DNA from: Escherichia coli
GTDB taxonomy: Bacteria; Pseudomonadota; Gammaproteobacteria; Enterobacterales; Enterobacteriaceae
DNA length: 64,000 nt
Strand: one strand, 5' to 3'
NCBI RefSeq assembly: GCF_003790525.1
Contig: NZ_CP033635.1
Position numbers and translations under genes: made by a program. Shown one piece after another: positions 21,043 to 39,795 of the stretch. Each line of letters begins with the position of its first letter. Within the stretch, counting starts at the first letter, position 1. The notes under the pieces are model-generated. The model saw nothing but the letters and a program-made list of their open reading frames with translations, made no database searches and was not told the DNA's origin.

Positions 21043-22356
<1,314 letters not shown>

Positions 22357-22374: not shown

Positions 22375-22405
22375 CTAAAAAGCGCCTGCGGGCGCTTTTG
22401 CATGG
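22375..22405 (+). terminator. serS terminator hairpin containing the prophage attL core (22385-22399)
   Basis: aaaaagcgcctgcgggcgctttt; CCTGCGGGCGCTTTT repeated at 59774-59788. Confidence 0.7.
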
Positions 22406-22554
22406 TACTTAACTATATGAAAATAAATGGATTTTATTTTCATGTGTCCAGATAATGTCCATCTTTGAAGAAAAAAGTCCACAATACTGACGTTGTGGGC
22501 TTTTCTTTTTCCTGATGGTGTCGTGCCGTCAGTGCAACGAACCAAAGGGAGGGG

Positions 22555-22782
22555 ATGTTGATGTTGTTTTCCCTTCGCACCAGCTTTAAAGCCACTCTTG
22601 TTAACGATGATGGTACGCCACGGATCACGGCCGAGGTGAGGAATGTGACACCTGATGATATCGGGAAGGTGGCGGAACTTGTCAGGGATGTTTTTGGTAC
22701 TCCTTCCGGTACCTGCCGTTCAGACTCTGCGGCCAGGGTTGACAGGCAGGATGTTAACGCCGGGTGGCTTACGCGCCTCTGA
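22555..22782 (+). CDS. Hypothetical 75-aa protein at the attL end
   Basis: Strong SD GGGAGGGG before the ATG; preceded by a terminator hairpin. Confidence 0.35.
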   Translation: MLMLFSLRTSFKATLVNDDGTPRITAEVRNVTPDDIGKVAELVRDVFGTPSGTCRSDSAARVDRQDVNAGWLTRL

Positions 22783-22932
22783 ATGATGATGCCCTCACTG
22801 GTGAGGGTGACAAAAAAGCCCTCTCAATGGCGGGCAAATCTGGTTTTTTGTTTTGTCTCTACAGGGAAAGGGCGCCATATCGGCCCACCCCAACAACCGG
22901 ATAGCGGGGAATTTCTCCCCCGCTGCGGTTTC

Positions 22933-23073
22933 TTACGGTTTACACTGCAAGAACGCCGCAAAACGCGCTCCCCAGATATCAAAGCTGAATTCACATAACG
23001 AATCGTGGACCATCCAGATGACCAGGGTTATTGTCAGGCATAAAATGCCAACAATAATCGTTTTTTGCGGTAT
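22933..23073 (-). pseudogene. Hok/Gef-family toxin paralog with ATA in the start position
   Basis: Frame gives IPQKTIIVGILCLTITLVIWMVHDSLCEFSFDIWGARFAAFLQCKP; same length and context as the intact copy at 24938-25078. Confidence 0.45.
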
Positions 23074-23173
23074 AGCGCTTGCTCCTTTTACAAAGAGGCG
23101 CTAACCTTCCACTTGTCACGGTAGGAAGGGTCAGGCCTCGGTTAAACACAGATGTTTTCCGGGGCCTTTCCAC
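22991..23173 (-). CDS. Mok-like reading frame overlapping the hok-like ORF
   Basis: ORF overlaps the hok paralog in another frame; paralog of 24945-25178. Confidence 0.3.
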   Translation of the reverse strand: MERPRKTSVFNRGLTLPTVTSGRLAPLCKRSKRYTAKNDYCWHFMPDNNPGHLDGPRFVM

Positions 23174-23283
23174 ATCCGGCCTTCAGGTTTTCCCTCCGGC
23201 CATCAGCCGAAAGGCACCCGTTTCTTTTTGTTGCGGCAATATTTCAGGTGTCAGTTGGGGTGGGCTGTATCTTGTCTGATGCA

Positions 23284-23382
23284 TAAAAAAATGCCCGCGC
23301 TTTGGCGGGCAAAAGACAAGACTTTTCGTTTGTATATCATGGATAATGGACACCCCTTCCTGTTGTCAGGTGGCAGGCACCC
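23284..23382 (-). ncRNA. Candidate small RNA or leader unit X1
   Basis: Minus-strand -35 TTGAGA (23412-23417), 17-bp spacer, -10 TAGATT (23389-23394); ends at hairpin plus U-run. Confidence 0.3.
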
Positions 23383-23486
23383 GTGGTTAATCTACTGTTT
23401 TTGTGCTTTTGTCTCAACCCTGAAGTTTTCATGGAAAATCAGGGTTGCTTCATATGTGCCAGGAAGGTGCGGCTATGATAACTGCC

Positions 23487-23578
23487 AAAAAAAGCCCGCT
23501 TTCCGGCGGGCAAAACAGCAATGTGAGTTGTCTGTCATTGATACTGGACAGCCTTCCTGTTGTCAGGTGGAAGGTACC
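23487..23578 (-). ncRNA. Candidate small RNA or leader unit X2
   Basis: TTGAGA-N17-TAGATT on the minus strand, then terminator. Confidence 0.3.
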
Positions 23579-23930
23579 CGTGGTTAATCTACTGTCTTTG
23601 TGCTTTTGTCTCAACCCTGAAGTTTTCATGGAAAATCAGGGTTGCTTCATGTGAACCAGGAAGGTGAGGCGATGGTAACCGCCAAAAAAATGCCCGCTTT
23701 CCGGCGGGCAAAACAAGGAAGTACGGATCATGTATTATTGATTACGAGGCATTCCACCATGCCCACGTTTAATTTAGCTAGTTTTCATTTTATTCACAAT
23801 ATAGTTACTTATCATATTTATGAACAAAACTGTAATTTCATCTATAGGTATAAGTGATTTGCATTAACATGTTTCTTCTGTATTGCTGTTGGTTTTCCGA
23901 TGCTGATATTTATGATACATTCAGGGGCAA

Positions 23931-24002
23931 ATGAGGTTGTTCCACAGAAACGATGTTGAGATATTTCTGCTCCAGAAAGGACAAGCTAAAAAAATAAAGT
24001 GA
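23931..24002 (+). pseudogene. Disrupted paralog (Y1) of the small protein at 25756-25971
   Basis: MRLFHRNDVEIF... then premature stop; conserved AT-rich upstream region. Confidence 0.3.
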
Positions 24003-24135
24003 AATTATGATATGTCAGGGATGTTCAGGCATGTCAGTGTCTTATTAATAAACTCGTTGCTGCTGTAATAACACCAAAAAAATCAAAGCATAATCTGCAT
24101 GTTGTTCCTGATGACCCAATAACCACAAAAGAATA

Positions 24136-24228
24136 AAAAAATGCCCGCTTTCCGGCGGGCAAAACAGCAATGTGAGTTGTCTGTCATTGATACTGGACAC
24201 CCTTCCTGTTGTCAGGTGGAAGGCACCC
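24136..24228 (-). ncRNA. Candidate small RNA or leader unit X3
   Basis: TTGAGC-N17-TAGATT on the minus strand, then terminator. Confidence 0.3.
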
Positions 24229-24586
24229 GTGGTTAATCTACTGTCTTTGTGCTTTTGGCTCAACCCTGAAGTTTTCATGGAAAATCAGGGCTGCTTTGTG
24301 TGCGCCAGGGAAGGCGCCTCGATGGCAGGCGCAAAAAAAATGCCCGTGCTTCGGCGGGCAAAATAAGGAAGTACAGGTTACATGTTATTGATAAAGTAGC
24401 ATTGCTCTGTCCGTCTTTAATCTAACGAGTTTTGAGTTTTTTCACAATATTGTTACCTGTCATGTTATAGATGAAACTGCAATTTCATCTATAGGTATAA
24501 ATGATTTGTATTAATGTGTGTCCACTGTTTGTCTGCTTTCTGGTTTTCAGTTGACTGTGTTTCTGATGAATTCAGGAGGTTGTCTT

Positions 24587-24685
24587 ATGAGGCTGTTCCA
24601 CAGAAACGATATTGAGATTGAACTGCATTTCTCCTCCGGTGAGGATAAGGTTAAATCATTGTTGATGAAAAAAACAAAGATTTAA
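24587..24685 (+). pseudogene. Truncated paralog (Y2) of the small protein at 25756-25971
   Basis: MRLFHRNDIEIELHFSSGEDKVKS then divergence and stop; SD AGGAGG. Confidence 0.3.
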
Positions 24686-24815
24686 TTTATTGATATAAAG
24701 GATTTGTATCAGCGTATGTCCACGCAGTGACCACATTTTCGAGAGGTAGAGTAAGCCCGCAACATTGCGGGCTTTGTCTTATAGTCTGATCACTGTTTCA
24801 AGTCGGTGAGGACAC

Positions 24816-24852
24816 CAAAAAGAAAACCCGCAGTTTTTATGCTGCGGGTTTG
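24816..24852 (-). terminator. Intrinsic terminator downstream of the hok-like gene
   Basis: Minus strand aaacccgcagcataaaaactgcgggttt plus T-run. Confidence 0.6.
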
Positions 24853-24937
24853 TTGTTCATGTCTGTGAGATAGGGTGCCTTATCGACCTTACCCTGGCAA
24901 CCGATTGACGGGGGATTGCTCCCCCGTCGCGGTTTCC

Positions 24938-25078
24938 TTACTTCTTACATTGTAAGAACGCCGCAAACTCCGCTCCCCAGAAGCTCATCCGTATTTCGCA
25001 CAGCGAACCGTGCAATATCCAGATGATGAGGATTGCCGTCACGCAGAACGTGATGGCCGTAAGCGATTTTTGCGACAT
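24938..25078 (-). CDS. Hok/Gef-family type I toxin homolog (46 aa)
   Basis: MSQKSLTAITFCVTAILIIWILHGSLCEIRMSFWGAEFAAFLQCKK; TM helix plus SLCEIR...AAF as in Hok; SD AAGGAG. Confidence 0.65.
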   Translation of the reverse strand: MSQKSLTAITFCVTAILIIWILHGSLCEIRMSFWGAEFAAFLQCKK

Positions 25079-25178
25079 AGCACTTGCTCCTTTTCCGGAG
25101 AGGCGCTAACCTTTCACTTGTCAAGGTAATGCGGTTAGGGCCTCGGTTAAACAGAAATGTTTTCCGGGGCCTTTCCAC
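24945..25178 (-). CDS. Mok-like reading frame overlapping the hok-like ORF
   Basis: ORF track; overlaps the hok homolog in another frame. Confidence 0.3.
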   Translation of the reverse strand: MERPRKTFLFNRGPNRITLTSERLAPLRKRSKCYVAKIAYGHHVLRDGNPHHLDIARFAVRNTDELLGSGVCGVLTM

Positions 25179-25314
25179 ATCCGGCCTTCAGGTTTTCCCT
25201 CCGGCCATCAGCCGAAAGGCACCCGCGCGTAATTTAACTGTTTCTTTTTGTTGCGGCAATATTTCAGGTGTCAGTTGGGGTGGGCTGTATCTTGTCTGAT
25301 GCATAAAAAAATGC

Positions 25315-25400
25315 CCGCGCTTCGGCGGGCAAAAAACAAGACTTTTCGTTTGTATATCATGGATAATGGACACCCTTCCTGTTGTCAGGGGGAGGTACCC
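25315..25400 (-). ncRNA. Candidate small RNA or leader unit X4
   Basis: -35 and -10 hexamers kept (TTGAGC, TAGATT) while the 17-bp spacer differs from X1-X3. Confidence 0.3.
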
Positions 25401-25755
25401 GTAGCTAATCTACTCACTTTGTGCCCGCAGCTCAACCCTGAAGTTTTCATGGAAAATCAGGGCTGCTTTGTGTGCGCCAGGGAAGGCGCCTCGATGGCAG
25501 GCGCAAAAAAAATGCCCGCTCTCCGGCGGGCAAAACAATGATCTACGTCACATTATATTGATAACCGGGCATTCCTCCATGCCCATTTTTAATTTAGCCA
25601 TTTTTCATTTTGTTCACAATATAGTTATCTATCATATTCATGAATGAAATTATAATTTCATCTATAGGTATAAATGATTTGTGTTAATATGTTTCTCCTG
25701 TCTAACTGTTTTCTCATTTTTCGATACTAGTATTTCTGATATATTCAGGGGGCGT

Positions 25756-25971
25756 ATGAGATTGTTCCGAAGAAACGATATTGAGATTGAACTGCATTTC
25801 TCCTCCGGTGAGGATAAGGTTAAATCAATAAAGGTGAAACTAAGACATGCCCGGGATGTTCAGGCGTGTCAGTGTCTTATTGATGAACTCGTTGCTGCCG
25901 GAGGAACGCCAAAAAAACAAAAATATAATCTGCACGTGGTTCCTGATGACCCCATAACCACAAAAGAATAA
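25756..25971 (+). CDS. Hypothetical small protein (72 aa), intact member of the three-copy 'Y' family
   Basis: MRLFRRNDIEIELHFSSGEDKVKS...; SD AGGGGG; AT-rich upstream region. Confidence 0.45.
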   Translation: MRLFRRNDIEIELHFSSGEDKVKSIKVKLRHARDVQACQCLIDELVAAGGTPKKQKYNLHVVPDDPITTKE

Positions 25972-26113
25972 AAAAATGCCCGCTTTCCGGCGGGCAAAAA
26001 ACAATTTAGGTCATATTTCATCATGGATAATTAAATACTTGCCCGTGGTTGCGGGAAAGTATCTGCCGTTAATCTACTTGCCTTATGATGTCCTCTCAAC
26101 CTGATTATTGTTC

Positions 26114-26365
26114 TTAAATATCAAGATTAATCTGAGTATTCCCCCTGTGAGATCCCGGAAAATCTTCCCACGGTATCCGCTCTGTACCCTGCGGCGACGG
26201 GGCGCGTTTTGATGTGAATTTGTTAAAACCCTCCAGTGTGGTAAAGCCGATCCCGCATTCGAGGTTATTGCACTGGTAGTACTTCAGGCGAACTGTGCCT
26301 GAATCATTTTCATTGCGACTGGTGCGGATACGTGCGGATGCACCGCATAGGGGACAACGGAACAT
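26114..26365 (-). CDS. ogr: Ogr/Delta-type zinc-finger late-gene activator
   Basis: MFRCPLCGASARIRTSR...YYQCNNLEC resembles P2 Ogr C2C2 finger. Confidence 0.85.
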   Translation of the reverse strand: MFRCPLCGASARIRTSRNENDSGTVRLKYYQCNNLECGIGFTTLEGFNKFTSKRAPSPQGTERIPWEDFPGSHRGNTQINLDI

Positions 26366-26408
26366 GGCTTCTCCTTATCTGGCTGAGTGGAGATGGCTCA
26401 TTTTAATT

Positions 26409-27500
26409 TTATCCGCCTGAATCTGCTATCCATTCGGGGATTTTCGCTTCCAGCTCCAGTTGTGTGGTGAAGCCGCTTTCATCTATGATGTGCTCCACCC
26501 TGGCAATAATCCAGTCCTGATTGTCCACCTCGCTTTTAAAACCTGTTACCCTGCCGTGCATTTCGGGATACAGGTCGGCACGACCCCGTGCCAGAGTGAT
26601 GGAGAATGCCGCTGCTCCCCGCTGTAACTCCTGCCACTTTGCCGCAGCTGCACGTCGTGCGGTTTCTTCATTCTGGTAAGTCCTGCGCAGAACGTAGACG
26701 TTCCCTTCCGCGCCTTCCATGTAATCACCCTCCCGGCTGCTGCTCTTCTCCTGTTTCTGTTTCCCGGCTTCCCTGCGTCGCTTCACGTTCACTTTTTTCT
26801 TGTGCCCGAACTTCAGATCGAGCCAGTGCGCCCGGACCCCCGTATACGCATCACGGTCAGCAATGCGAAAGCGGTGACTGTCGCCGCTGCTGCGGGTAAT
26901 GGCGAACGAAGGCAGGGCTCTTCCGTCCGGCCCGGTTCCGCCACCCGGCAGAATGAATAACAGGCTGCCGTTTTTTACGGTGGCAATCGCACCCAGCATT
27001 TCAGCCATGCGGGTCAGGAAGGATATATCGCTCTCTTCGGTCTGGTCAGCGTGGTCAATTTCGATATCCATGAGGATTTCGCTTATCTGTGTCTTCAGGC
27101 CGTAGCGGTGAGCGATGGCTGACACAACCTGTTTTACGGTCACGTCGTGCCAGGATACCTCCCGCCTCACGTTGAACTCTTCCCGAAAATCTGCGCTGCT
27201 GGCGGTGATGATCAGTTTATCTGGAGGTCCTTCCCACGCAACCTCATCAACGACGTAGGTGCCCTTGTTAACCAGTGATTCTCCTCGCCAGCCAATCATC
27301 ACTCTCAGGCGTGCGCCACGTGGTGGCAACTGTAACTGCCCGTCCGTATCGTCAAGGGTGAGGGTGACGCGGTCTGCCTCAAAGGCCCGGTTATCCGTCA
27401 GGGTCAGCGTCATGAGTCGCTCTGTGAGGTTTGCCAGTGTGTTGTTGTTGATGGTGATGTCGATATCCGGTGACGGAACGGTAACTGACAGCTCTTTCAT
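26409..27500 (-). CDS. D: P2 gpD-like tail protein
   Basis: TLTDNRAFEADRVTLTLDDTDGQ...SWHDVT...REGDYMEGAEGNV resemble P2 D; start at MKELSVT with SD AGGAGA. Confidence 0.85.
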   Translation of the reverse strand: MKELSVTVPSPDIDITINNNTLANLTERLMTLTLTDNRAFEADRVTLTLDDTDGQLQLPPRGARLRVMIGWRGESLVNKGTYVVDEVAWEGPPDKLIITASSADFREEFNVRREVSWHDVTVKQVVSAIAHRYGLKTQISEILMDIEIDHADQTEESDISFLTRMAEMLGAIATVKNGSLLFILPGGGTGPDGRALPSFAITRSSGDSHRFRIADRDAYTGVRAHWLDLKFGHKKKVNVKRRREAGKQKQEKSSSREGDYMEGAEGNVYVLRRTYQNEETARRAAAAKWQELQRGAAAFSITLARGRADLYPEMHGRVTGFKSEVDNQDWIIARVEHIIDESGFTTQLELEAKIPEWIADSGG

Positions 27501-27567
27501 GGTGTTCTCTCCTGGTGCGTTCTGTAATGGTTTCATGCACCGCAGCGGCGTTGAATGGCTGTTTTGT

Positions 27568-27585
27568 TGTCGCTGTCAGGAGACA
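27568..27585. promoter_or_regulatory. Ogr-type late-promoter dyad TGT-N12-ACA between divergent D and FI
   Basis: TGTTGTcgctgtcaggagACAACA, about 76 bp from the D ATG and 85 bp from the FI ATG. Confidence 0.5.
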
Positions 27586-27661
27586 ACATCAAAGGGGTGA
27601 GATTACCGCGTGTGTGGGTAATGATTACGCAAAATCAACCAGCCAGACAAGGGTGAAACAT

Positions 27662-28945
27662 ATGAGTGAAACACGCTTTCATGGTGCGCGCGTAAGGGAA
27701 AGTACCGGCCTTGCCACCGCCATTAATGATGTGGATTCCAGTGTTATTGGTATTGTGGCTACGGCAGATGACGCGGATGAAACTCTGTTCCCGCTGAACA
27801 AACCCACACTGCTGACCCGCGTCAGTGATGTGCTGGGTAAGGCCGGCACAAAGGGGACGCTTTACAAATCGCTTAAGGCTGTCGCCGACCAGGTGAGCAC
27901 GAAGGTGATTGTGGTGCGCGTTCCTGATGCCAGTTCTCAGGGCGCCCCGGATACAGGAGTTACATCATTCGGTCATCTGGATCCTGAAGACAGGGCATTT
28001 TTTGGTATTGATGAGTCTGAAGATGCACATCCTGTATACCCACACAAAACGCAGGACCAGTATGTCATTGGTGGCACGGATGGCGACGGTAATTATACCG
28101 GTATGTATGCACTTCTGATAGCTGAACAGGATGATGCCATCGGTTACCGTCCGCGCATCATCGCAGCTCCCGGACTGGATACTGAAGCTGTCACAAAATC
28201 CCTGTGTGTAATTGCAGAAAAACTTCGCGCATTTGTCTACGCGGGCTGTCACAACTGCAAGAAGCCCGCCGATGCAATCAGCTACCGCGCCAGATTTAAC
28301 GAGCGCGAACTTATGCTGGTCTGGCCGGACTTCATCGCCCATAACCCGAAATCCGGCGCTAATGAGGTCTTCCCGGCTGTGGCGTACGCCTGCGGTTTAC
28401 GTGCACGTATTGACCACGAACAGGGCTGGCATAAATCGCTGTCCAACGTGCCGGTAAGAAATGTGCTGGGTATTTCCAGCCCGGTGTTCTGGTCCCTTCA
28501 GTCCGAAGACAGCGATGCCAACAATCTCAACAACAAGGAAATCACTACCATCATTTGCCGTAACGGTTTCCGCTTCTGGGGCAACCGTACGCCGGAAACG
28601 AAGGCGTATATCTTTGAGGTGTACACGCGAACCGCTCAGGTGCTGGCTGATTCCATTGCGGAAGCGCAGTTTGAAACGATTGATGCCCCGCTGACCCCTG
28701 CTAATGTGAAAGACGTGTTAAGCGCAATTCGCGCAAAACTGGATGCGCTGGTTACGTCAGGACGTCTCATTGGTGCGGAGTGCTGGTATGACGTGGTGGA
28801 TAACAGCACCACGGAACTTCGTCAGGGACGCGTGCGTATCCGCTACAAGTACACGCCCGTTCCGCCGCTTGAGGATATGGAACTTTACCAGGCGTTTACT
28901 GATGAATTCTTTGGTCCTGCATTTGCGACGCTTGGAGGTGCTTAA
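27662..28945 (+). CDS. FI: Tail sheath protein (P2 FI-like)
   Basis: MSETRFHGARVRE...DETLFPLNKPTLL...KGTLYKSLKAVADQ resembles P2 FI. Confidence 0.85.
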   Translation: MSETRFHGARVRESTGLATAINDVDSSVIGIVATADDADETLFPLNKPTLLTRVSDVLGKAGTKGTLYKSLKAVADQVSTKVIVVRVPDASSQGAPDTGVTSFGHLDPEDRAFFGIDESEDAHPVYPHKTQDQYVIGGTDGDGNYTGMYALLIAEQDDAIGYRPRIIAAPGLDTEAVTKSLCVIAEKLRAFVYAGCHNCKKPADAISYRARFNERELMLVWPDFIAHNPKSGANEVFPAVAYACGLRARIDHEQGWHKSLSNVPVRNVLGISSPVFWSLQSEDSDANNLNNKEITTIICRNGFRFWGNRTPETKAYIFEVYTRTAQVLADSIAEAQFETIDAPLTPANVKDVLSAIRAKLDALVTSGRLIGAECWYDVVDNSTTELRQGRVRIRYKYTPVPPLEDMELYQAFTDEFFGPAFATLGGA

Positions 28946-29463
28946 TGGCCGTACCAAAAAATCTCAGGGTGTTCACGCTGTTTACTGACGGGGTGAACCA
29001 GATTGGCAGGGTGACCGGCTTCACGCCCCCCAAACTGACCCGTAAAACGGAAGCCTATCGCGGTGGTGGTATGGCCGGCGCGGTGAATATCGACCTTGGT
29101 CTGGATGACGGCGCGCTGGATGCGAGTTTCACCATGGGCGGGCCGACCCGCGAACTGTTCCTTAAGTACGGCGGCACGATCGACGGTACGCTGCTGCGCT
29201 TTGTCGGTGAGTACTACAACGATGAAGAGCAGAGCGACCTGTATGAAATTGAGCTTCGCGGCCGCGTGACGGAAATTGATACGGGGGAGGCAAAACAGGG
29301 TGAGGTCACGTCTCACACCTATGCGGTCAGGAGTACCTACTACAAACTCAGCATTAACGACCGTCCGGTGCTGGAGATTGATTTACTGAACCACATCGAA
29401 CGCAAGGACGGCAAAAACGTCTTCCCGGACCGCGTGCGCTCGGCGATTGGTCTTGGTGGTTAA
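28945..29463 (+). CDS. FII: Tail tube protein (P2 FII-like)
   Basis: 172 aa directly after the sheath gene. Confidence 0.8.
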   Translation: MAVPKNLRVFTLFTDGVNQIGRVTGFTPPKLTRKTEAYRGGGMAGAVNIDLGLDDGALDASFTMGGPTRELFLKYGGTIDGTLLRFVGEYYNDEEQSDLYEIELRGRVTEIDTGEAKQGEVTSHTYAVRSTYYKLSINDRPVLEIDLLNHIERKDGKNVFPDRVRSAIGLGG

Positions 29464-29513
29464 TGTTTCCCACGGCGGCGCGCGGCGTCGCCCCCTGATT
29501 TGAGGTTTTATGC

Positions 29514-29876
29514 ATGAAAGAAAATCCGGTTGTTGCCCCTGTTACTGACGGTGCTGATGCGGCGGACGTGACCAGTGAGCGCGGCGTGACGCTGAAAACG
29601 CCCCTTGTGCTCGGTAACAAAAAAATCACGTATGTGGAAATCACGCCTGCTGTACAGCAGGCCGGTTCACTGCGCGGGCTGTCACTGCTTGACGTGCTGA
29701 ACATGAAAACGGACGCGATGTTTGAGTTACTCCCGCGCGTCACTTCGCCGCGACTGGACGAGGTTCTGCTTAAGCGCATGGGGTCCGCTGATTTTATTCA
29801 GCTGTGCGGGGTGGCGGTTAATTTTTTGGCCGGTCAGGACTCTGGCGGGAAGAGCGGGGCGGCGACGGCAGGCTGA
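29514..29876 (+). CDS. E: Tail assembly chaperone (P2 E-like); E+E' product by -1 frameshift would extend to about 30040
   Basis: Position between tube and tape measure; slippery heptamer near the 3' end. Confidence 0.7.
   Translation: MKENPVVAPVTDGADAADVTSERGVTLKTPLVLGNKKITYVEITPAVQQAGSLRGLSLLDVLNMKTDAMFELLPRVTSPRLDEVLLKRMGSADFIQLCGVAVNFLAGQDSGGKSGAATAG
29822..29828 (+). promoter_or_regulatory. Candidate -1 programmed frameshift heptamer T_TTT_TTG (E/E')
   Basis: In-frame AAT TTT TTG; -1 frame continues about 70 codons to TGA at 30038-30040. Confidence 0.55.
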
Positions 29877-30026
29877 TAACCGTCGTGCCCTTTGAGCACA
29901 TTGAAGACTTTGTGGCGGATATCGCCGTTATTTTCAACTGGTCTCCCGCTGAAATCTTCCTGATGGATCCCGGCGAGGTGGTCGCCTGGCGTGAGCGGGC
30001 GGCCCTTCGCAGCGGGAACGCAGAGC

Positions 30027-33000
30027 ATGAAAACGCTTGATATACGGGTCGCCTTCAGCGCTGTTGACAGGCTGACCCGTCCCACCGAAAACGCCCGTCG
30101 CATGATGGGCCAGCTTGGCGACTCCATACAGAGAACGCAGGGTGCGATCAAAAACCTGGAACGCTACGCCCGTTCATTTGATCGCGCCCGCGAGGCTGCA
30201 AACAAGGCCGGAAACGGCATTGTCAGGGCGCAACGCCAGTTAAGCGCACTTCAGCAAATTCAGCGCGCCGGAACCGTGCTGTCTGACAAACAGAAAAAGC
30301 TGATGAACGATTTGAGCCTCAAACTTGAGCGTCTCAATGAGGTCCGTGCGCGTGAAGTTCAGCGAATGCGCGAACTGGGTGGTGAGCTGCGGCGCCACGG
30401 TATTGCGCTTTCCGGCAGTGACAACACCATTCAACAGGCCATACGGCGAACACAGCAATACAACGACCAGCTGGAACGCGAACGGCAGGCGCTGGCACGT
30501 GTCACGCAGGCACGCCAGCAATATTCCCGTGCTCAGGAGACGGCGGGAAAACTTAAAACGGTCGGACTTACGGCGGTTGGTACGGCGGCGGCAGGCGGCT
30601 ATGCGGCCGGACGTTTCCTGCAACCGGCGGTCAGTTTTGGTAAGGAGATGTCACGCGTCCAGGCGCTGACCCGTATTGACAAAAACAGTCCGCAGTTTAA
30701 GGCGCTGCGCGAACAGGCCATTAAGCTGGGCTCTGAAACGCAGTTTACCGCCGGTGATGCTGCCAGCGGTCAGGCGTTCCTTGCCATGGCCGGCTTCACA
30801 CCACAGGCCATACAGGCGGCGCTACCCGGCGTGCTTGATCTGGCAATGGCTGCAGGGATGGACCTGGGACAGACTGCCGATATCAGTTCGAATATCCTCA
30901 CACAGTTTGGTCTGTCCGCTGACCAGATGGATCGCGTGGGTGACACGCTGGCCGCCACCTTCACACGAACCAATACGGATCTCCGTTCACTGGGTGAAAC
31001 CATGAAGTACACGGGTCCGGTTGCAGCTTCACTTGGCCTGTCCCTTGAACAGGCGGCAGCCATGACGGGTGTCCTTGGCAGTGTGGGGATCCGTGGAAGT
31101 GATGCAGGTACGGCGCTGCGTGCCAGTCTGTCACGTCTGGTTGATCCGCCGAAGGCCGCTGCAATGGCACTGAAAGAGCTTGGCGTGGAGACGCAGAATG
31201 CTTACGGGAACATGCGCCGGATGGAAAATATCCTGAATGAGCTGTACCAGGCCACCCGAAAATACGGTAATGCCGCGCAGGTCTCCTTTTTCAGGGCTAT
31301 TGCCGGGCAGGAGTCCTATGTTTCCCTGATGAATCTTGTCACTGCGGCGGGGGAAAATAATCTTCCCCGTCTTACGCAGGAGATTGAACTGGCCACCGGG
31401 GAACTTAATCACACTGCCCGTGTTATGGCTGATAACCTGGACGGTGACCTGAAATCACTGAACAGCGCATGGGAAGGACTGCGTATCCGTGTCGCTGACC
31501 TCGTTGACGGGCCGCTGCGTTCTGTCACGCAGTCGTTCACCCGGGTTATTGCGAAAGTCACCGCGCTGGCTCAGGCGCACCCTGAACTGACAAAACAACT
31601 GCTGATTGCCGGTGGTGTACTGCTGGCTGCGGTTGCGGCCATGGGGGCGCTGTCACTTGCCACTGGTGTGTTGATGGGGCCGCTGGCAAAACTGCGTCTT
31701 GGGTTTGCCCTGCTGACCGGCACATCCGGCCTCGGTCGTGCGCTGCCGTTACTGACGCAGCTGCGCGGCGTACTCGGTGGTCCGCTGGGCGGTATCGGTG
31801 GCTGGCGCGTGCTGTTTGTCGGTATCACCTCCGGTGCCGGACGGTTTGCTGCACTGCTGGGCGTAGTTGCGGGGCGGCTTCGTGGTGTGCAGGCGGGACT
31901 TGGCGCGCTGCGTGGTGGTCTGCTGGCTGCGTTCACTTCACCTGGCGGCGCACTGATTTCACTGGGGCGCGGTATCGGAATACTGGCGCTCAGACTGTCA
32001 GGTCTGCCCGCACTGTGGGGGATGGTGAGTGGTGCGGTGGGCGCACTTGGCGGGGCGCTGGGTTTTCTGTTAAGTCCGGTGGGCCTTGTGGTGGCGACAC
32101 TGGTCGGTGCGGCAGTGCTTATCTGGCGGCACTGGGACCAGCTGAAGGCTGTCGTGGGCGGGTTCTTGTCCGGCCTGTGGCAGGGGCTTACGCCACTGCG
32201 CGAGGCTGTGGCACCACTGGGACCGCTGTTTGAGTATGTCGGGCAGACAATCGGGCGTGTGTGGCAGTGGTTCGTGGATTTGTTCGCGCCGGTAAGCACA
32301 ACAAAGGATGAGCTGGACAAGTGCACGGAAGCCGGGCGTACGTTCGGGCAGAAGGTAGGGGAGTTTATCAGCAATCTGGTGACCGGTCCGGTTACGCTGC
32401 TGATTGACTCATTAACCCGGGTGCTGGAAAAACTCGGGCTGATTCCGTCGGCGGTTGAGCGCGCCCGGAAAAAGGCGGAAGAACTAAAACAGAAGGAGTT
32501 GCTGAACGAGAAAGCTGCCATGCTTCTGGCGGATGTTAACGTCATTAATCCGCCGAAAAAGGACGAGGATAAAAAAGACGGCGAAAAACCCAAAGGGGGG
32601 CAACCACCCCTGACGGGGGAGAATACCGGCACTATGCGCCGCCTGAACAAAATCGTCGATAACACCGGTGGTCTGCTGGATGAGGCGAAACAGGCGAAAA
32701 AACGCGCTGGTCCCGGCGATATTATCTTTAAAAACCTGCCGGAAGCGCTGGCCGTTCGTGGTGAGTGGAAGGAGGAACGCTTTAACCGAGCAGCTTCCCT
32801 GTTACCGGGTAGTGTCAGTGAGCCACCTGTCAGACTGCCGCAGGTGCCGTCGGTCAGTGTGCCTTCGTTGCCACCGCTGCCAGCGCCACCGCCTGTCAGT
32901 GTTTCGCCGCTGATATCCACCACGGCGAACGTGTCGCCGGTCGTGAAGCCGGTGGTGTCCGTGAATAATGTGCCGGTTATTCCTCCGGTCGTCCGTCCGG

Positions 33001-33338
33001 TACTGTCCGGTAATATTACGCCAGTGGTTCCGCCGGTGATCAAACCGGTTATGACTCACGATGTCATGCCGACGTTCTCCCCGCTAATGACACCAGTGAT
33101 GGCGGCAACATCCCGTCCGGTGGTTGAGGCTGTGCGCCAGCCCATATCCCCCGCATCGCCCCGACCGCGCCAGAGTGAGCCGGCACCATGGGGATTAACT
33201 GGCGAACTGCATATTCACCTGCATGATGTTCACACGCAAAACCCGCGCGAACTGGCAAAAATGGTGGGTGATGCCGTCCGTGCGGAAATGGAACGCCGTA
33301 TCCGCCAGACAGTCGGTAGTTTCCGTGACAGAGATTAG
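30027..33338 (+). CDS. T: Tail tape measure protein (P2 T-like)
   Basis: About 1103 aa, coiled-coil N-terminus, Gly/Ala-rich hydrophobic middle; start MKTLDIRV. Confidence 0.85.
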   Translation: MKTLDIRVAFSAVDRLTRPTENARRMMGQLGDSIQRTQGAIKNLERYARSFDRAREAANKAGNGIVRAQRQLSALQQIQRAGTVLSDKQKKLMNDLSLKLERLNEVRAREVQRMRELGGELRRHGIALSGSDNTIQQAIRRTQQYNDQLERERQALARVTQARQQYSRAQETAGKLKTVGLTAVGTAAAGGYAAGRFLQPAVSFGKEMSRVQALTRIDKNSPQFKALREQAIKLGSETQFTAGDAASGQAFLAMAGFTPQAIQAALPGVLDLAMAAGMDLGQTADISSNILTQFGLSADQMDRVGDTLAATFTRTNTDLRSLGETMKYTGPVAASLGLSLEQAAAMTGVLGSVGIRGSDAGTALRASLSRLVDPPKAAAMALKELGVETQNAYGNMRRMENILNELYQATRKYGNAAQVSFFRAIAGQESYVSLMNLVTAAGENNLPRLTQEIELATGELNHTARVMADNLDGDLKSLNSAWEGLRIRVADLVDGPLRSVTQSFTRVIAKVTALAQAHPELTKQLLIAGGVLLAAVAAMGALSLATGVLMGPLAKLRLGFALLTGTSGLGRALPLLTQLRGVLGGPLGGIGGWRVLFVGITSGAGRFAALLGVVAGRLRGVQAGLGALRGGLLAAFTSPGGALISLGRGIGILALRLSGLPALWGMVSGAVGALGGALGFLLSPVGLVVATLVGAAVLIWRHWDQLKAVVGGFLSGLWQGLTPLREAVAPLGPLFEYVGQTIGRVWQWFVDLFAPVSTTKDELDKCTEAGRTFGQKVGEFISNLVTGPVTLLIDSLTRVLEKLGLIPSAVERARKKAEELKQKELLNEKAAMLLADVNVINPPKKDEDKKDGEKPKGGQPPLTGENTGTMRRLNKIVDNTGGLLDEAKQAKKRAGPGDIIFKNLPEALAVRGEWKEERFNRAASLLPGSVSEPPVRLPQVPSVSVPSLPPLPAPPPVSVSPLISTTANVSPVVKPVVSVNNVPVIPPVVRPVLSGNITPVVPPVIKPVMTHDVMPTFSPLMTPVMAATSRPVVEAVRQPISPASPRPRQSEPAPWGLTGELHIHLHDVHTQNPRELAKMVGDAVRAEMERRIRQTVGSFRDRD

Positions 33339-33349
33339 GAGTACCTCTC

Positions 33350-33838
33350 ATGATGATGATTTACGGCATGTTTGTTTTTGAGTTGCGTACGCTGCCTCAT
33401 CAACAACTGCAACATAATAAAACCTGGCGCCACGTTAAAAATGAACGCATCAATCGTTCGGCCAGCTGGCAGTATATCGGGGCGGGTGACGACCAGATCA
33501 CGTTGTCCGGTGTGCTTTATCCCGAAATTACCGGCGGTGAGGTTTCCCTCAGCCTTTTAACGACGCAGGCTTACACTGGTCGCCCATGGCCGCTGATTGA
33601 CGGTGTGGGGCAGATATACGGCATGTATGTGATAACGGCTGTCCGCACAACGCGAAGCGAACTTGACCGCCACGGTAAGGCCAAAAAAATTGAGTTCACT
33701 GTCAGTCTGGAACGCTGTGATGAGGATTTGCGGGAGAGTATGGCCTCGTCGCCGGTGTCTGATATGCTTTCGGGAATGAAAGGGAAGTTAAGTTCGGTCT
33801 GGAATACCACAGTAAGCGGCGTAAATGATCTGATGTGA
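33350..33838 (+). CDS. U: Tail protein (P2 U-like)
   Basis: MMMIYGMFVFELRTLPHQQLQ...ITLSGVLYPEITGG resembles P2 U. Confidence 0.75.
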   Translation: MMMIYGMFVFELRTLPHQQLQHNKTWRHVKNERINRSASWQYIGAGDDQITLSGVLYPEITGGEVSLSLLTTQAYTGRPWPLIDGVGQIYGMYVITAVRTTRSELDRHGKAKKIEFTVSLERCDEDLRESMASSPVSDMLSGMKGKLSSVWNTTVSGVNDLM

Positions 33839-33845
33839 AGGTAAT

Positions 33846-33865
33846 GTGCCGCATTCTTGCGGCAC
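33846..33865. terminator. Bidirectional hairpin between convergent U (+) and G (-)
   Basis: gtgccgcattcttgcggcac. Confidence 0.5.
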
Positions 33866-33908
33866 CTGCATGATGAATTATTTATGAATGCCCGTTCCTT
33901 TTCCCCGC

Positions 33909-34520
33909 TCATTCCATTTCTGGTGGTGTTTCCGGCCAGCTTATTTCAGGCTCCGTGCTGATATCCAGTGCGTTCAGCTCGTCGATATAATCCAGCACGG
34001 CATTCAGTTTTGCCGTTTCTTCTGGTGTCAGACTGCGACCTGCCCGCAACTTAAGGTTGATGAGGTCGATGGACTTCATCGCCTGATCCACCCGTTCCTT
34101 GCGTTGCTGTCTGGCAACCTCCAGCTCTTCGGCTTGCTGCCGTTCTGTATCGGTTACCCACGCCTCACCGTTCCAGGTATCCCATGGTGTGGCAGGCTGT
34201 TTTGTCGTTGTCCCTTCCGGGTAGTCACCTGGTTGGGTAATCTGGACCGGATTACCGTTCTCTGTGCTGTATACCGTCTCTCCACGATGATCGGGGACAT
34301 ACTCCCACCCGTCCAGCGTGGACGTCCGGCAAATCACGTAACCCGGCATTGCCTCTGGCGGGGCATCGGCGCATGAATGTGCCGGGGTACCCACCCCCAG
34401 GGCGAGATACTCCACAGAGGATGAGGTGTATTCCCGGGTTTCCTCATCATAGTGATATACAGTGATATCGCCTGCGAAAGTGGCGATACCGTTTTCATCC
34501 AGAACTGCAGTGTTACTCAT
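33909..34520 (-). CDS. G: Tail fiber assembly protein (P2 G-like)
   Basis: 203 aa downstream of the tail fiber gene. Confidence 0.7.
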   Translation of the reverse strand: MSNTAVLDENGIATFAGDITVYHYDEETREYTSSSVEYLALGVGTPAHSCADAPPEAMPGYVICRTSTLDGWEYVPDHRGETVYSTENGNPVQITQPGDYPEGTTTKQPATPWDTWNGEAWVTDTERQQAEELEVARQQRKERVDQAMKSIDLINLKLRAGRSLTPEETAKLNAVLDYIDELNALDISTEPEISWPETPPEME

Positions 34521-36754
34521 TAAACTGCCCTCACAATATAATTAAAAGCGATATTGCGCGGTCTGATCGCTATCCATCTGTCTTTTTCATTACTCACCAG
34601 CTTACCGGCTCTGGCTATTGCCCATCTGTCAACTGGTTTTGTGCCGTACAGGATGCCGTTACCGGTTCTGGGTTGATCAGGGGTTATGTTTATGATGTCG
34701 TTATCATGTGATGCAAATGAAATCCCTGCCTGAATATCTGCACCTCCCGCTACGCCGTGGTACGCCTGTATGGCGGTACAAATATATGTTGCTTCCTGTG
34801 TGGATAACAATAAGCGTCCCCTGTCAATCATTCGCAGGTCATCCCATCCACGAATAAATTCCCCGCGCAAATCTGGTAGCCTGAGGTCAGGGTAGGCCAC
34901 CGCCAGTTTTGGGTATTTTGTACGCGTGAATGCGGCACCGTTGCACTGTAACCACCCCTCAGGTGGTCTTGACGAAGGCCACGGAACGGGTACGCCAACT
35001 GGCAGCGTCGAGCCTTCTCCTAAACCAAAGTAATCAAGAATATCTTTTATGCTTTGTTTACCCATGATGACGCGGGCAACAGACGAAAAAACAGGGGCGT
35101 CTGTGATCTGAGCCCAGCGATGAGTGTGGGCTGCCGAGGCTTTGCTGTTGGCAAGGTCATACGCAGCTTTAACAGCTTTTGGTGTGGCCGCCAGCGTTTC
35201 GGAATTGCTGTTTGTGGCGCTGCTTAGCTGTACGATGCCTTTGCGTCCGGTGGTTGCATCCTGTCCTGTATACTTGCTCGTCAGCATATCGTGTAAGGCT
35301 TTAACCGCTTTGGGGGTGGCGGCCTCAGTCTCTGACTCACTGTTTGTGGCACTGCTCAGCTGTACGGTGCCTTTTGCCGTCAGCGAGGCTGATGGCACAC
35401 CTGTTATCTGATTCCACGGGTGGGTGTGGCTGGCGGGTGCTTTACCGGCTGCAAGGTCATATGCAGCCTTGACGGCTCTTGGTGTGGCCGCCAGCGTTTC
35501 GGAATTGCTGTTTGTATCGCTGCTCAGCTGTACGATGCCTTTGCGTCCAGTTGTTGCATCTGTGTTTGTCACCTCCACCCACTCTGACCATGGGCCGTTA
35601 CCGTTAAAGTTTCCGGTAACTGTCCTGATAAATTTTCGTGGCGGATCCCAGCTCGTGTATTCATGCTGGCAGAATCCCCATGCACCAACACGGATGCGTA
35701 ACTCTCCTGCCTTCTCTACAGGATAGTTTCTGTCTGTTCTCGCACCTGAGTCACTCTGCTGGTAATAATCTCCCGCGTCTTCCTTACGCCCCAGAGTGTT
35801 CAGGTCTGTTTCCCCCAGGGATGTTGTTGGCTTCACGAACGCCATGCTCAGTGCATCACTTACTGCCTTCGGTGTGGCCGCCAGTGTTTCGGAATTGCTG
35901 TTTGTGGCGCTGCTCAGCTGTACGATGCCTTTGCGTCCGGTGGTTGCATCCTGTCCTGTATACTTGCTCGTCACCATATCGTGTAAGGCTTTAACCGCTT
36001 TGGGGGTGGCCGCCTCAGTCTCTGACTCACTGTTTGTGGCACTGCTCAGCTGTACGGTGCCTTTTGCCGTCAGCGAGGCTGATGGCACACCAGTTATCTG
36101 ATTCCACGGGTGGGTGTGGCTGGCGGCTGCTTTACCGGCTGCAAGGTCATATGCAGCCTTGACGGCCTTCGGTGTGGCGGCCAGTGTTTCAGAGGTGCTG
36201 TTTGTGGCGCTGCTCAGTTGGGTGAATCCTTTTTCTGTCAGTGTCGCGTCAGGGTGGTTACGGGAACGTGCGTGTTCCGCCATTTTCTCATCAATGTAGT
36301 CCGTGGTCGGCAGAATTGTTGTTGTGTCCATGACCAGTTCCACCACGGCGTCGGAGGTGACGGTGATTACTGCACGGAATATCTGCGCCCGCCCTGAACC
36401 TTCCTCTCTGGTGGGCTTGTAACTTTCAGCGGTATTTCCTACTGCAATCATTGTACCTGTATCATCAAACACACCAATTTCACGCACCCAGAATCCGCCG
36501 GTTTCAGGAGGAATGACCAGTTCGGCGATGAGGCGGTTCGGGTTCTCCGGGTCGGTGAAGACGCGGTTGACAGACTGGCGCCAAACCTCATTGTAAAGCG
36601 ATGTCTGGTTTTTCTGCGGCTGACGAAGCTCTCCATTGCCGTCCCCTACAGCCATGTGCGTAAGGCGTACAGGTCTACCGCCAGGCGCCGTTGTTGCGGC
36701 CAGCTTTGCCAGCCCGATGTCGGTGATAAGGGTTCTGAATTTTCTCGTGCTCAT
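34520..36754 (-). CDS. H: Tail fiber protein (P2 H-like) with internal repeated modules
   Basis: 744 aa; repeated TGRKGIVQLSSATNSNSETLAATPKAVKAAYDLA and TAKGTVQLSSATNSESETEAATPKAVKALHDM blocks. Confidence 0.8.
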   Translation of the reverse strand: MSTRKFRTLITDIGLAKLAATTAPGGRPVRLTHMAVGDGNGELRQPQKNQTSLYNEVWRQSVNRVFTDPENPNRLIAELVIPPETGGFWVREIGVFDDTGTMIAVGNTAESYKPTREEGSGRAQIFRAVITVTSDAVVELVMDTTTILPTTDYIDEKMAEHARSRNHPDATLTEKGFTQLSSATNSTSETLAATPKAVKAAYDLAAGKAAASHTHPWNQITGVPSASLTAKGTVQLSSATNSESETEAATPKAVKALHDMVTSKYTGQDATTGRKGIVQLSSATNSNSETLAATPKAVSDALSMAFVKPTTSLGETDLNTLGRKEDAGDYYQQSDSGARTDRNYPVEKAGELRIRVGAWGFCQHEYTSWDPPRKFIRTVTGNFNGNGPWSEWVEVTNTDATTGRKGIVQLSSDTNSNSETLAATPRAVKAAYDLAAGKAPASHTHPWNQITGVPSASLTAKGTVQLSSATNSESETEAATPKAVKALHDMLTSKYTGQDATTGRKGIVQLSSATNSNSETLAATPKAVKAAYDLANSKASAAHTHRWAQITDAPVFSSVARVIMGKQSIKDILDYFGLGEGSTLPVGVPVPWPSSRPPEGWLQCNGAAFTRTKYPKLAVAYPDLRLPDLRGEFIRGWDDLRMIDRGRLLLSTQEATYICTAIQAYHGVAGGADIQAGISFASHDNDIINITPDQPRTGNGILYGTKPVDRWAIARAGKLVSNEKDRWIAIRPRNIAFNYIVRAV

Positions 36755-38213: not shown

Positions 38214-38564
38214 TTACTCCCTCAGGGTGATACTGAATGTGATGTTCTGCATGGTTTCGGTGATGATGCCGGATAACGTCACCACGGCGCGTCCGCCAGC
38301 CCGCCAGTTCACATCGACGTTCTGCAGTGCTATACGGGGTTCATGGCGCGCCAGCGCAGTCACCGTGGCGCTCATGCACTGTAAACGCGTGGTGTCGTTC
38401 ATGGGCTCGTCGATGAGGTCCGGTAACAGGCTGCCGTATTCGCGGCGCATCACCCGGCTGCCTGGCGGTGTGGTCAGGATATCCCGCACGCTGTTTTTCA
38501 GGTGTTCGCTGTCGCTCAGCGTGCCGGTTCCCTGCGGGTTCATCCCCCTGTAAACAGCGGTCAT
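38214..38564 (-). CDS. W: Baseplate protein (P2 W-like)
   Basis: About 116 aa from MTAVYRGMNP; the track ORF extends upstream. Confidence 0.7.
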   Translation of the reverse strand: MTAVYRGMNPQGTGTLSDSEHLKNSVRDILTTPPGSRVMRREYGSLLPDLIDEPMNDTTRLQCMSATVTALARHEPRIALQNVDVNWRAGGRAVVTLSGIITETMQNITFSITLRE

Positions 38565-39142
38565 TGCGGGCCTCCCGTGGTGCCCGGGCCCGTCCTGACG
38601 CCACCGTGGGTGTGCGTATGAACGGTGATACCGTTGGATGTCAGGCTGCCGCCGCTGTGGGATATGCTGCCGCGCATCTCGCCGCCGTTCTGCACCTCCA
38701 GGGTGGCGGTGATAAGTTTGCGGGTACACACCACCTCCGACGTGTCCAGGGTGATGCGCGTGTCGGCCTGAATGCTGGCTGTTTTAATCCCCTTAACCTC
38801 CAGTGCACCGGCGTCTGCATCGTAGCGGAATACCGCACCGTCCGGTGCTGTCATGATGATTTCCTTCAGTGTGCTGCCCGGTGCCGGGATATCATCGCTC
38901 CAGAGGCTGCCGATGATTATCGCGGTTTCGGGATTACCACCGATACAGACGAACGCCACCTGTTCACCGGTGGCTGGCGGCACCCAGACACTGAACGCGC
39001 CCGCCCGCGCGGTGCTCCAGCGAAGCCAGCCTGTCTCCAGTCCGCCACTGCGCACCCGGACCTCCCAGGTCTGCGGGTTCACGTCGAAAATCACGCCGGT
39101 TCTGATGATGTTGCTGATAAGGCGCATTAATTCCGCGTTCAT
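38561..39142 (-). CDS. V: Baseplate spike/hub protein (P2 V-like)
   Basis: 193 aa; position. Confidence 0.75.
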   Translation of the reverse strand: MNAELMRLISNIIRTGVIFDVNPQTWEVRVRSGGLETGWLRWSTARAGAFSVWVPPATGEQVAFVCIGGNPETAIIIGSLWSDDIPAPGSTLKEIIMTAPDGAVFRYDADAGALEVKGIKTASIQADTRITLDTSEVVCTRKLITATLEVQNGGEMRGSISHSGGSLTSNGITVHTHTHGGVRTGPGTTGGPQ

Positions 39143-39795
39143 GCCACAGCCCTCGCGATATTGTCCATAATGATACGCTGAATAAGTCGTTCATCTGCCG
39201 GTGTTATTCCAAGAAGTTCACGGGCCGGATAATCCGTATACATCCCTGCGGCCACCCGGTCGCGCTCCCCGAACTGGTGAACGCGGGCAATGCGTGCCGC
39301 CACGCCGCTGTAGCCCACCGTCACGCCTGATGCGTCCGCCTTCACTTTCAGATAACGGGCCGTGCGCAGCTTCGCAAACATCGGCACCGTTTTTGTGGTG
39401 TCACGGTTGATGCGGCGTGTCCTGATTTCAAGGAAACGGAGGATATCACTCCGGTAAAAGGTACGTATGCCGCTCCGGTCTTCATCCCAGCCGGTGATGG
39501 TCTGGCCGTATTTTCCTGAACCGTGATGCCAGTTTTTCAGGGTGCGGTTCTGGTTTTGCCAGATAAAGCTGATGCGCTCCTGAAGGCGTGATATACGGCG
39601 TTTACGGCGTGTCCACACCGAACCGTCCGGCGCTTTCTGGGCGCGCATCCGGCTCTGGTTCACGCGCCGCAGCTCCTTACCCACATGCGCGGCAATGCGC
39701 TTCACTGCCTGCGGGCTGGTTGCCAGCCGGATATTGACAAACATGTTACTCATTCCTTCAGCGGGAACGAGGTTACGGTATCTCAGTTTCCCCAT
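39139..39795 (-). CDS. S: Tail completion protein (P2 S-like); start uncertain
   Basis: Position after R; ORF longer than P2 S. Confidence 0.55.
   Translation of the reverse strand: MGKLRYRNLVPAEGMSNMFVNIRLATSPQAVKRIAAHVGKELRRVNQSRMRAQKAPDGSVWTRRKRRISRLQERISFIWQNQNRTLKNWHHGSGKYGQTITGWDEDRSGIRTFYRSDILRFLEIRTRRINRDTTKTVPMFAKLRTARYLKVKADASGVTVGYSGVAARIARVHQFGERDRVAAGMYTDYPARELLGITPADERLIQRIIMDNIARAVA

Follow-up and report, generated by a model that had tools for sequence, protein, structure and literature searches.

In bacteriophage P2 (Peduovirus) the tail genes FI...U, D and ogr run in the same direction as V...G, with Z/fun lying between G and FI, a separate pV promoter accompanied by orf30, and an annotated ogr/F-operon terminator. 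P2 has an Ogr-type activator, and TGT-N12-ACA-type sites lie ~56 bp upstream of its mapped late starts. The divergent promoters pO and pP share one such site, a single activator site being annotated for the pair in the P2 record; measured from the dyad centres, the mapped starts in that record are at +56 for pP and pO and at +57 to +59 for pF. TGT-N12-ACA is the published consensus of P2-type late promoters, and in Smp131 the PP'/PO' dyad is also reported to be shared (PMC3931495). The co-directional order of P2 is found in vB_YenM_42.18 and ENT90 as well. P88 and the Citrobacter phage Shae_phiSM (PhiSM; both Xuanwuvirus) have a different arrangement, in which ogr and D diverge from FI-FII-E-E'-T-U and the latter block converges on the tail-fibre genes. 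This arrangement is already known, in that it can be seen in annotated public genomes, beginning with the KSP20 fragment and P88. No remark on the inversion was found in the literature searched; the P88, PhiSM and SEN4 papers are silent on it, and those on Burkholderia, Xenorhabdus and Pseudomonas tailocins deal with other topics.

The window analysed here, a stretch of 64,000 nucleotides from Escherichia coli, contains a prophage at ~22385-59788 with serS on one flank and dmsA on the other. The prophage is intact and P2-like (Peduoviridae), and its nearest kin are the phages of the P88 group. Its gene set is that of P2, with the P2-type virion module present: divergent Q-P and O-N-M-L, X, the lysis genes, R-S, V-W-J-I-H-G, and FI-FII-E-T-U-D. 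Synteny of this module with P2 was seen by tblastn and the PHROG matches agree, while the PGAP annotation of an identical prophage includes the names 'major capsid protein, P2 family', GPO scaffold, gpM, portal and terminase. Gene identities and strands (Table 1) were assigned from ORFs, PHROGs, the RefSeq/PGAP annotation of that identical prophage, Pfam, and NCBIfam/TIGR profiles. As originally predicted from the sequence by itself, ogr, D and V-W-J-I-H-G lie on the minus strand, and the plus strand carries FI-FII-E-T-U; an E' frame follows E. The P2 record confirms that G, FI...U, D and ogr are co-directional in P2. After H, the minus strand continues with I, J, W and V. The canonical P2 order, with FI...D co-directional with V...G, is thus not the one found here, the FI...U block being inverted; in addition, S and V are contiguous and orf30 is lacking. 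Because several accepted genera carry the same inversion, gene order is no criterion for membership of the Peduoviridae. The start of D is at 27500, not 27536, and is preceded by an AGGAGA ribosome-binding site. The ogr product scores 40 bits against the NCBIfam Ogr equivalog, under the cut-off of 116 bits, which marks the predicted activator as a divergent Ogr.

Table 1. Features of the inverted tail module and its surroundings, in window coordinates.
Feature	Coordinates	Strand	Basis
Intrinsic terminator after ogr, end of D-ogr unit	25977-25996	-	7-pair stem then TTTTTTTATT
ogr, 83 aa, Ogr/Delta-type zinc-finger late activator	26114-26365	-	Pfam Ogr_Delta PF04606 E 7.8e-14; PHROG 603; PGAP name in identical prophage
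D, 363 aa, baseplate hub / late control D family	26409-27500	-	PHROG 52 E 1e-147; PGAP start; 79% identical to P88 D
Divergent D/FI intergenic region, predicted bidirectional late promoter	27501-27661		Spacer length, central dyad
Candidate -10 of D promoter, GAAACCAT, +43 to +50 from dyad centre	27527-27534	-	Offset as P2 pO hexamer region
Exact palindrome TGTTGT-N12-ACAACA (includes TGT-N12-ACA), predicted Ogr site	27565-27588 (centre 27576.5)		Exact-pattern match
Candidate -10 of FI promoter, TAATGATT, +43 to +50 from dyad centre	27619-27626	+	Conserved offset in relatives
FI, tail sheath, 427 aa	27662-28945	+	PHROG 23; 77% identical to P88 FI
FII, tail tube	28945-29463	+	TIGR01611 above curated cut-off; PHROG 55
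E, tail assembly chaperone	29514-29876	+	PHROG 103; PGAP 'GpE family phage tail protein'
E' frame, chaperone pair with E (pair 29514-30040)	29885-30040	+	PHROG 103; PGAP
T, tape measure, 1103 aa	30027-33338	+	TIGR01760; PHROG 28
U, tail protein	33350-33838	+	PHROG 76 E 3e-71; 80% identical to P88 U
GC-rich hairpin in 70-bp convergent U/G gap	33847-33866		GTGCCGCA-TTCT-TGCGGCAC; 8-bp stem, 4-nt loop
G, tail fibre assembly protein	33909-34520	-	PHROG 105 E 2e-87
H, tail fibre	34520-36754	-	PHROGs 988 and 381
Second exact TGTTGT-N12-ACAACA, central in divergent O/P intergenic region	45283-45306		Exact-pattern match

The module of P88 and PhiSM matches that of the prophage in order and strands, with amino-acid identities of 79% (D), 77% (FI) and 80% (U), a D/FI spacer of 163 bp carrying the same TTGTTGT half-site, and a hok/gef locus adjoining ogr as in the prophage. 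An Rfam search of the low-GC region beside ogr gave sub-threshold sok matches only. The ICTV convention for a genus is a genome-wide nucleotide similarity to its members of ~70% or more. The prophage lies below this level for Xuanwuvirus: in a rough coverage and identity estimate (not VIRIDIC), the best phage records cover only 16% of positions 26000-34600 and 41% of positions 34600-59590, at ~78% identity. The Enterobacter phage phiT5282H (Novemvirus) has an identical layout with ogr after D and a short convergent tfa/U gap that contains a hairpin and lacks an invertase; its D, FI and T proteins are 74%, 67% and 50% identical to those of the prophage, the tail-tube and sheath proteins being more distant. 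Klebsiella 3LV2017 (Reginaelenavirus), ST16-OXA48phi5.4 (Reipivirus), Salmonella SEN4 (Senquatrovirus) and Serratia KSP20, from other hosts and with protein identities of 51-74%, have the same inverted module, again with ogr after D, a spacer of ~160 bp and a central dyad; the cargo between their fibre genes and U is variable.

The inverted layout therefore spans five ICTV genera of Peduoviridae (Xuanwuvirus, Novemvirus, Reginaelenavirus, Reipivirus and Senquatrovirus) plus KSP20. In a tblastn search against all phage records, wherever a listed record matched D at 59.5% identity or more and its FI was also among the matches listed, D and FI were adjacent and on opposite strands. A neighbour-joining tree of D, FI and FII (three proteins only, 876 ungapped columns, and a small sample of 11 taxa) placed the inverted phages in one clade in 200 of 200 bootstraps, with the prophage sister to P88 and PhiSM. 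The prophage has all the traits of this clade: D and FI are neighbours that diverge from a spacer of ~160 bp, U converges on the genes for the tail fibre, and ogr lies downstream of D. Among 5426 complete E. coli genomes, 1140 align with the D/FI junction as a single piece. The original prediction implied that the orientation was unusual, and had itself named comparison with reference P2-like genomes as the test of that claim; the comparison found the same orientation to be common, and the implication is wrong. The inverted tail module is standard for a whole Peduoviridae clade and carries little weight as a discovery, and the 'canonical P2 order' should not serve as the template for judging P88-like prophages, which are found in about one fifth of complete E. 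coli genomes.

Because the inverted phages form one clade, a single old and fixed inversion is the simplest account of the layout, and we consider it very probable that the arrangement is typical of the lineage, neither a switch nor an artefact. FI-FII-E-E'-T-U and the late promoter of this block would have been inverted once in the common ancestor of the P88 group and fixed since. A flip of the 6.4-kb block during contig joining has a negligible probability and was rejected, since region 25500-48500 has one colinear match at 99.5-100% in each of 20 independent complete E. coli genomes, 26 records match at 99% or more over the D/FI junction, and isolated phages have the same order. This agrees with the earlier view that the layout is functional and not a misassembly, as it is identical in independent complete genomes and common to inducible or plaque-forming phages (P88, PhiSM). 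The presence of a DNA invertase directly beside U in P88 and PhiSM could point to a programmed segment, inverted by a site-specific invertase of the Gin/Cin/Hin type, of which the window would hold one of two states. However, the P88 enzyme adjoins alternative tail-fibre cassettes, its usual target, and the window contains no invertase homologue, either by tblastn with the P88 invertase or in the PGAP annotation. No inverted-repeat pair linking 27500-27662 with 33838-33909 was found, and the relatives and near-identical genomes all have a single orientation, every match covering at least 80% of the query being colinear; programmed inversion was accordingly rejected as extremely improbable. Inversion on several independent occasions, or lately in this prophage alone, might be favoured by a palindromic late-promoter site that makes such flips easily tolerated, and P2-like phages are known to have other rearrangements of their tail genes (Smp131; PMC3931495). 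It is nevertheless very unlikely, given the monophyly of the inverted genomes in all 200 bootstraps and the breakpoints, spacer length and alignable spacer motifs that they have in common.

The D/FI spacer, measured from ATG to ATG, is 167 bp in the prophage and 159-167 bp in seven phages of five genera, with the dyad central. Here the TGT-N12-ACA dyad of Ogr-dependent P2 late promoters is present in an extended, exactly palindromic form, TGTTGT-N12-ACAACA. With its 12 specified bases, this palindrome is expected ~0.003 times in 64 kb and occurs twice, between D and FI and between O and P, the latter copy lying at distances of 80.5 bp (O) and 74.5 bp (P) from the two flanking ATGs. The earlier observation that the central Ogr-type dyad mirrors the O/P arrangement is thus borne out, the palindrome being the same at both places and the P2 site serving both pO and pP. 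The bare TGT-N12-ACA pattern was dropped as evidence since by itself it is not rarer than chance would give, with 11 matches where 15.6 are expected; information comes only from the extended exact palindrome and from where it lies. All eight aligned relatives keep the left half-site, TTGTTG; on the right side, ACA is degenerate in P88, PhiSM, phiT5282H and ST16-OXA48phi5.4. Both arms have weak -10-like hexamers at +43 to +50 from the dyad centre, a geometry compatible with the mapped P2 pO and pF. The candidate on the D side is at an offset equal to that of the P2 pO hexamer region (GGAAACTG; mapped start at +56), and of the six relatives compared, five have nAnnnT hexamers there and SEN4 has no clear one; the D-side hexamers are weak (GAAACC, GACCAT, AATCAT). 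On the FI side, the relatives have conserved GATGAT, GATTAT, GAATAT or AATGAT at the corresponding offset. A sigma-70 scan found a strong promoter on neither side of the spacer.

These features suggest a model in which the inversion would have broken up the P2 F operon (FI...U-D), leaving FI...U and D-ogr as separate, divergent units with one palindromic Ogr site in the middle of a spacer whose length is probably constrained at ~160 bp. Ogr bound at this site would activate RNA polymerase in both directions, with starts ~56 bp to each side, as at P2 pO/pP. From the palindrome and its geometry we infer that Ogr binds here, that both promoters depend on it and that the single site drives both operons, the D-side promoter being a prediction. 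The FI...U unit would stop at the U/G hairpin, meeting the end of the long O...S-V...G unit, and the D-ogr unit at the canonical terminator past ogr. On balance we favour the reading that pF and its Ogr site, moved beside D, became a second bidirectional late promoter; the late regulon would then rest on two symmetric Ogr sites (D/FI and O/P), giving two predicted bidirectional late regions against one in P2, and ogr would be fed back only through D. The weakness of the D-side hexamers, not obvious in SEN4, and the sigma-70 result would also fit a site that serves the FI promoter only, with D and ogr transcribed from an Ogr-independent promoter (weak constitutive or ogr-proximal only) and the central position of the dyad incidental; in P2 a separate promoter for ogr lies at the end of D, and in the prophage the D stop, upstream of ogr, is overlapped by TAAAAT-like hexamers. 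We judge this unlikely, as D is an essential tail gene expressed in P2 solely from the Ogr-dependent F operon, the spacer length and central dyad are conserved over five genera despite high sequence divergence, and nAnnnT hexamers occur at the mirrored offset in most relatives. With a shared Ogr site, as we favour, the clade would be a clean natural case of an operon that could be split by an inversion, thanks to a palindromic activator site, with the stranded gene (D) still controlled.

The terminator after ogr matches in position that annotated in P2. A hairpin between the convergent U and G genes, also noted originally, is present and is a candidate end of the FI...U unit. The hairpin has a U-tract on neither strand and was not called by the terminator scan, and a reading of it as a canonical bidirectional terminator is unsupported. 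In relatives, hairpins with A-runs and T-runs lie right after U. The proposal that the Z/fun position is absent stands for this prophage in so far as there is nothing at that place and no Z/fun homologue was found anywhere in the window, but does not stand for the relatives, in which the convergent tail-fibre/U junction is a cargo slot. In P88 and PhiSM the slot between U and G, only 70 bp in the prophage, is occupied by an invertase together with alternative fibre cassettes; at the fibre/U junction of ST16-OXA48phi5.4 there are a DUF262 gene and a second gene. Within the module itself, the prophage FI has a 33-aa insertion relative to P88 FI, and its T protein is 168 aa longer than that of P88 (935 aa), the P2 protein having 815 aa.

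Gene calls from the ORF listing, PHROGs, NCBIfam, Pfam and the PGAP table agreed with one another and confirmed that the FI-to-U tail block is inverted relative to the P2 order. In P2 the genes V...G, FI...U, D and ogr all lie on a single strand, and the prophage differs by an in-place inversion of exactly the FI-to-U block; the start of D, first placed at 27536, was corrected to 27500. At the S/V boundary (38561-39800) S overlaps V, with no intergenic gap, orf30 or separate region of the type of the P2 late promoter pV. What in P2 are two operons, O...S and V...G, here appear to be fused into one long minus-strand unit.

Positions and strands of genes and other features in the window
Feature	Position	Strand
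ftsK, lolA, rarA, serS	14740-22356	
Direct repeat CCTGCGGGCGCTTTT, left copy	22385-22399	
Sub-threshold Rfam sok matches	23062-23219, 25065-25224	
hok/gef ORF	24938-25078	-
ogr	26114-26365	-
D	26409-27500	-
Palindrome, D/FI spacer	27565-27588	
FI	27662-28945	+
FII	28945-29463	+
E	29514-29876	+
E'	29885-30040	+
T	30027-33338	+
U	33350-33838	+
U/G hairpin	33847-33866	
G	33909-34520	-
H	34520-36754	-
I, J, W, V, S, R, lysis genes, X, L, M, N, O (after H)		-
Palindrome, O/P spacer	45283-45306	
P, Q		+
C4 antisense RNA (Rfam)	54068-54155	-
isrK (Rfam)	54191-54266	-
STnc130 sRNA (Rfam)	59759-59893	-
Direct repeat CCTGCGGGCGCTTTT, right copy	59774-59788	
dmsABC-ycaC	59900-64000	

The implied premise that this layout is unusual was not borne out, as reference P2-like phages commonly carry the same orientation. 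The nearest phage records (P88, P884B11, 500465-2 and Shae_phiSM) are annotated with the same order: a block of sheath, tube, E, E', T and U lies on the strand opposite to D and converges on the fibre genes. When 50,697 phage records were searched by tblastn with D and FI, the two genes were adjacent and on opposite strands in every record listed with both a D match of at least 59.5% identity and an FI match; opposite-strand records comprised P88-like coliphages, phiT5282H, many Klebsiella phages, KSP20, SEN4/5, 520873 and 503458. Local tblastn synteny of representative phages placed the inverted layout, with ogr following D, in Xuanwuvirus (P88, PhiSM), Novemvirus (phiT5282H), Reginaelenavirus (3LV2017), Reipivirus (ST16-OXA48phi5.4), Senquatrovirus (SEN4) and the KSP20 fragment; the genes remain co-directional in P2, vB_YenM_42.18 (Firavirus) and ENT90. 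A neighbour-joining tree of concatenated D, FI and FII united the inverted genomes in one clade (200 of 200 bootstraps), with P88/PhiSM as sister of our prophage.

The prophage belongs to, and works like, this P88-related clade of Peduoviridae; its ∼78% nucleotide identity to Xuanwuvirus extends over 16-41% of the length, a rough similarity that would place it outside that genus. Since P88 is inducible and lytic (PMC5285337) and PhiSM functions as a temperate phage (PMC6456863), the layout is compatible with a viable phage. The earlier view of it as functional was largely right. The arrangement is already known, being plain in public annotated genomes; a limited literature search found no published discussion of the inversion. 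Three of these records carry annotation slips: in P88 the ogr homologue that follows D (1091-1339, 71% identity) is left unannotated, product names are off by one gene in Shae_phiSM (2294-4745), so that D is called ogr and the sheath 'late control gene D protein', and the D CDS of KSP20 runs through the promoter spacer into FI.

An assembly artefact is ruled out by single colinear matches in complete E. coli genomes, as originally predicted. Twenty such genomes match at least 80% of the 23 kb at 25500-48500, and the matches listed are single colinear pieces at 99.5-100%. The D/FI junction (861-bp query, at least 80% of length aligned) occurs in 1140 of 5426 complete genomes, single-piece alignment being judged on sampled matches among the 1140. 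An invertible switch is likewise rejected: no inverted repeats joining the two block junctions were found, the 64-kb window holds no invertase homologue, and none of the complete E. coli matches to either query has the block in the opposite orientation.

At the 70-bp U/G gap the single predicted hairpin exists, but it lacks a U-tract and does not qualify as a canonical terminator. No homologues of Z/fun, old, tin or orf30 were found within the 64-kb window. The fibre/U junction of P88 and PhiSM holds an invertase with alternative fibre cassettes and that of ST16-OXA48phi5.4 a DUF262 gene plus another gene, whereas T5282H, 3LV2017 and SEN4 have only a terminator-like hairpin. The clade has retained a slot for cargo where the fibre genes meet the sheath module; in this prophage the slot is empty.

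The D/FI spacer contains an exact palindrome TGTTGT-N12-ACAACA, the predicted binding site of the late activator Ogr, whose only other exact copy in the 64 kb lies at the centre of the divergent O/P spacer (about 0.003 copies expected by chance against the 2 present). The published consensus TGT-N12-ACA (PMC3931495) is uninformative alone, with 11 matches in the window against 15.6 expected; the extended palindrome and its placement carry the signal. Measured from ATG to ATG, the spacer is kept at 159-167 bp in seven phages, which represent five genera, with the dyad near its middle, though the sequences are heavily diverged. All eight sequences in the alignment share the left half-site TTGTTG; the right is degenerate in four. 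Counted from the dyad centre, mapped P2 late starts lie at +56 (pP, pO) and +57 to +59 (pF), and -10-like hexamers fall between +43 and +50. Both arms of our site have such hexamers at that offset, TAATGATT on the FI side and GAAACCAT on the D side; GAAACCAT resembles GGAAACTG of P2 pO, and most relatives have these hexamers as well. The P2 record annotates one activator site for both pO and pP, and coincident PP'/PO' dyads are reported for Smp131 (PMC3931495).

From the palindrome, the spacer geometry and the P2 pO/pP and Smp131 parallels, we infer that the D/FI spacer is quite likely a second late promoter that works in both directions, with transcription predicted to start near 27633 (plus strand) and 27520 (minus strand). 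In P2, D is an essential tail gene, last in the Ogr-dependent F operon; splitting FI...U from D would deprive D of its promoter, and the spacer would supply one. The main rival is that D is served by an Ogr-independent promoter. With a bidirectional D/FI promoter, no more than two symmetric sites (D/FI and O/P) would drive the late regulon, because S and V are contiguous with no orf30 gap. The simplest history is an inversion with one breakpoint upstream of the activator site of pF and the other in the U-D interval, after which the palindromic site would have ended up adjoining D. The D-ogr gap (26366-26420 region) is shorter than that of P2 (43 versus 81 bp); the D stop is overlapped by TAAAAT-like hexamers, upstream of an AAGGAGAAG ribosome-binding site, which could be a candidate counterpart of P2's own ogr promoter.

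The T (tape measure) ORF is intact at 1103 aa, compared with 935 in P88 and 815 in P2, and self-BLAST found no internal repeat. Strain TUM1886 has an identical, PGAP-annotated prophage copy in which T is labelled an incomplete pseudogene and 1.1 kb is left unannotated, probably an annotation artefact. Compared with its P88 counterpart, the sheath protein FI carries an insertion of 33 aa (27938-28045, residues about 93-128), probably a surface loop; P2 FI, too, differs in length at this site.

The window is chromosomal E. coli DNA. Its 37-kb P2-like prophage sits between serS and dmsA, and several E. coli genomes match dmsABC-ycaC at 100%. The flanking 15-bp direct repeat is a putative att core. 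Its left copy forms a hairpin directly after serS; as the right copy falls within the STnc130 match (126.9 bits), the phage appears to integrate at the 3' end of this sRNA gene or in its terminator. Rfam matches above gathering score in the prophage early region are to C4 antisense RNA (80.1 bits) and to isrK (60.1 bits). Between attL and ogr, 3.7 kb (22400-26110) of low GC (0.44-0.47) is highly repetitive: an intrinsic terminator on the minus strand (AAAAAAATGCCCGCTTTCCGGCGGGCAAA) occurs nine times, a ∼174-nt unit four times and a 48-nt box five times, one box (26054-26101) lying directly 3' of the ogr stop. It contains a single intact hok/gef ORF and sub-threshold sok matches (E about 1e-8); its repeated terminator-bounded units may be small RNAs or decayed hok/sok loci. 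The whole block accompanies the prophage (26 genomes), and the hok parts are widespread.
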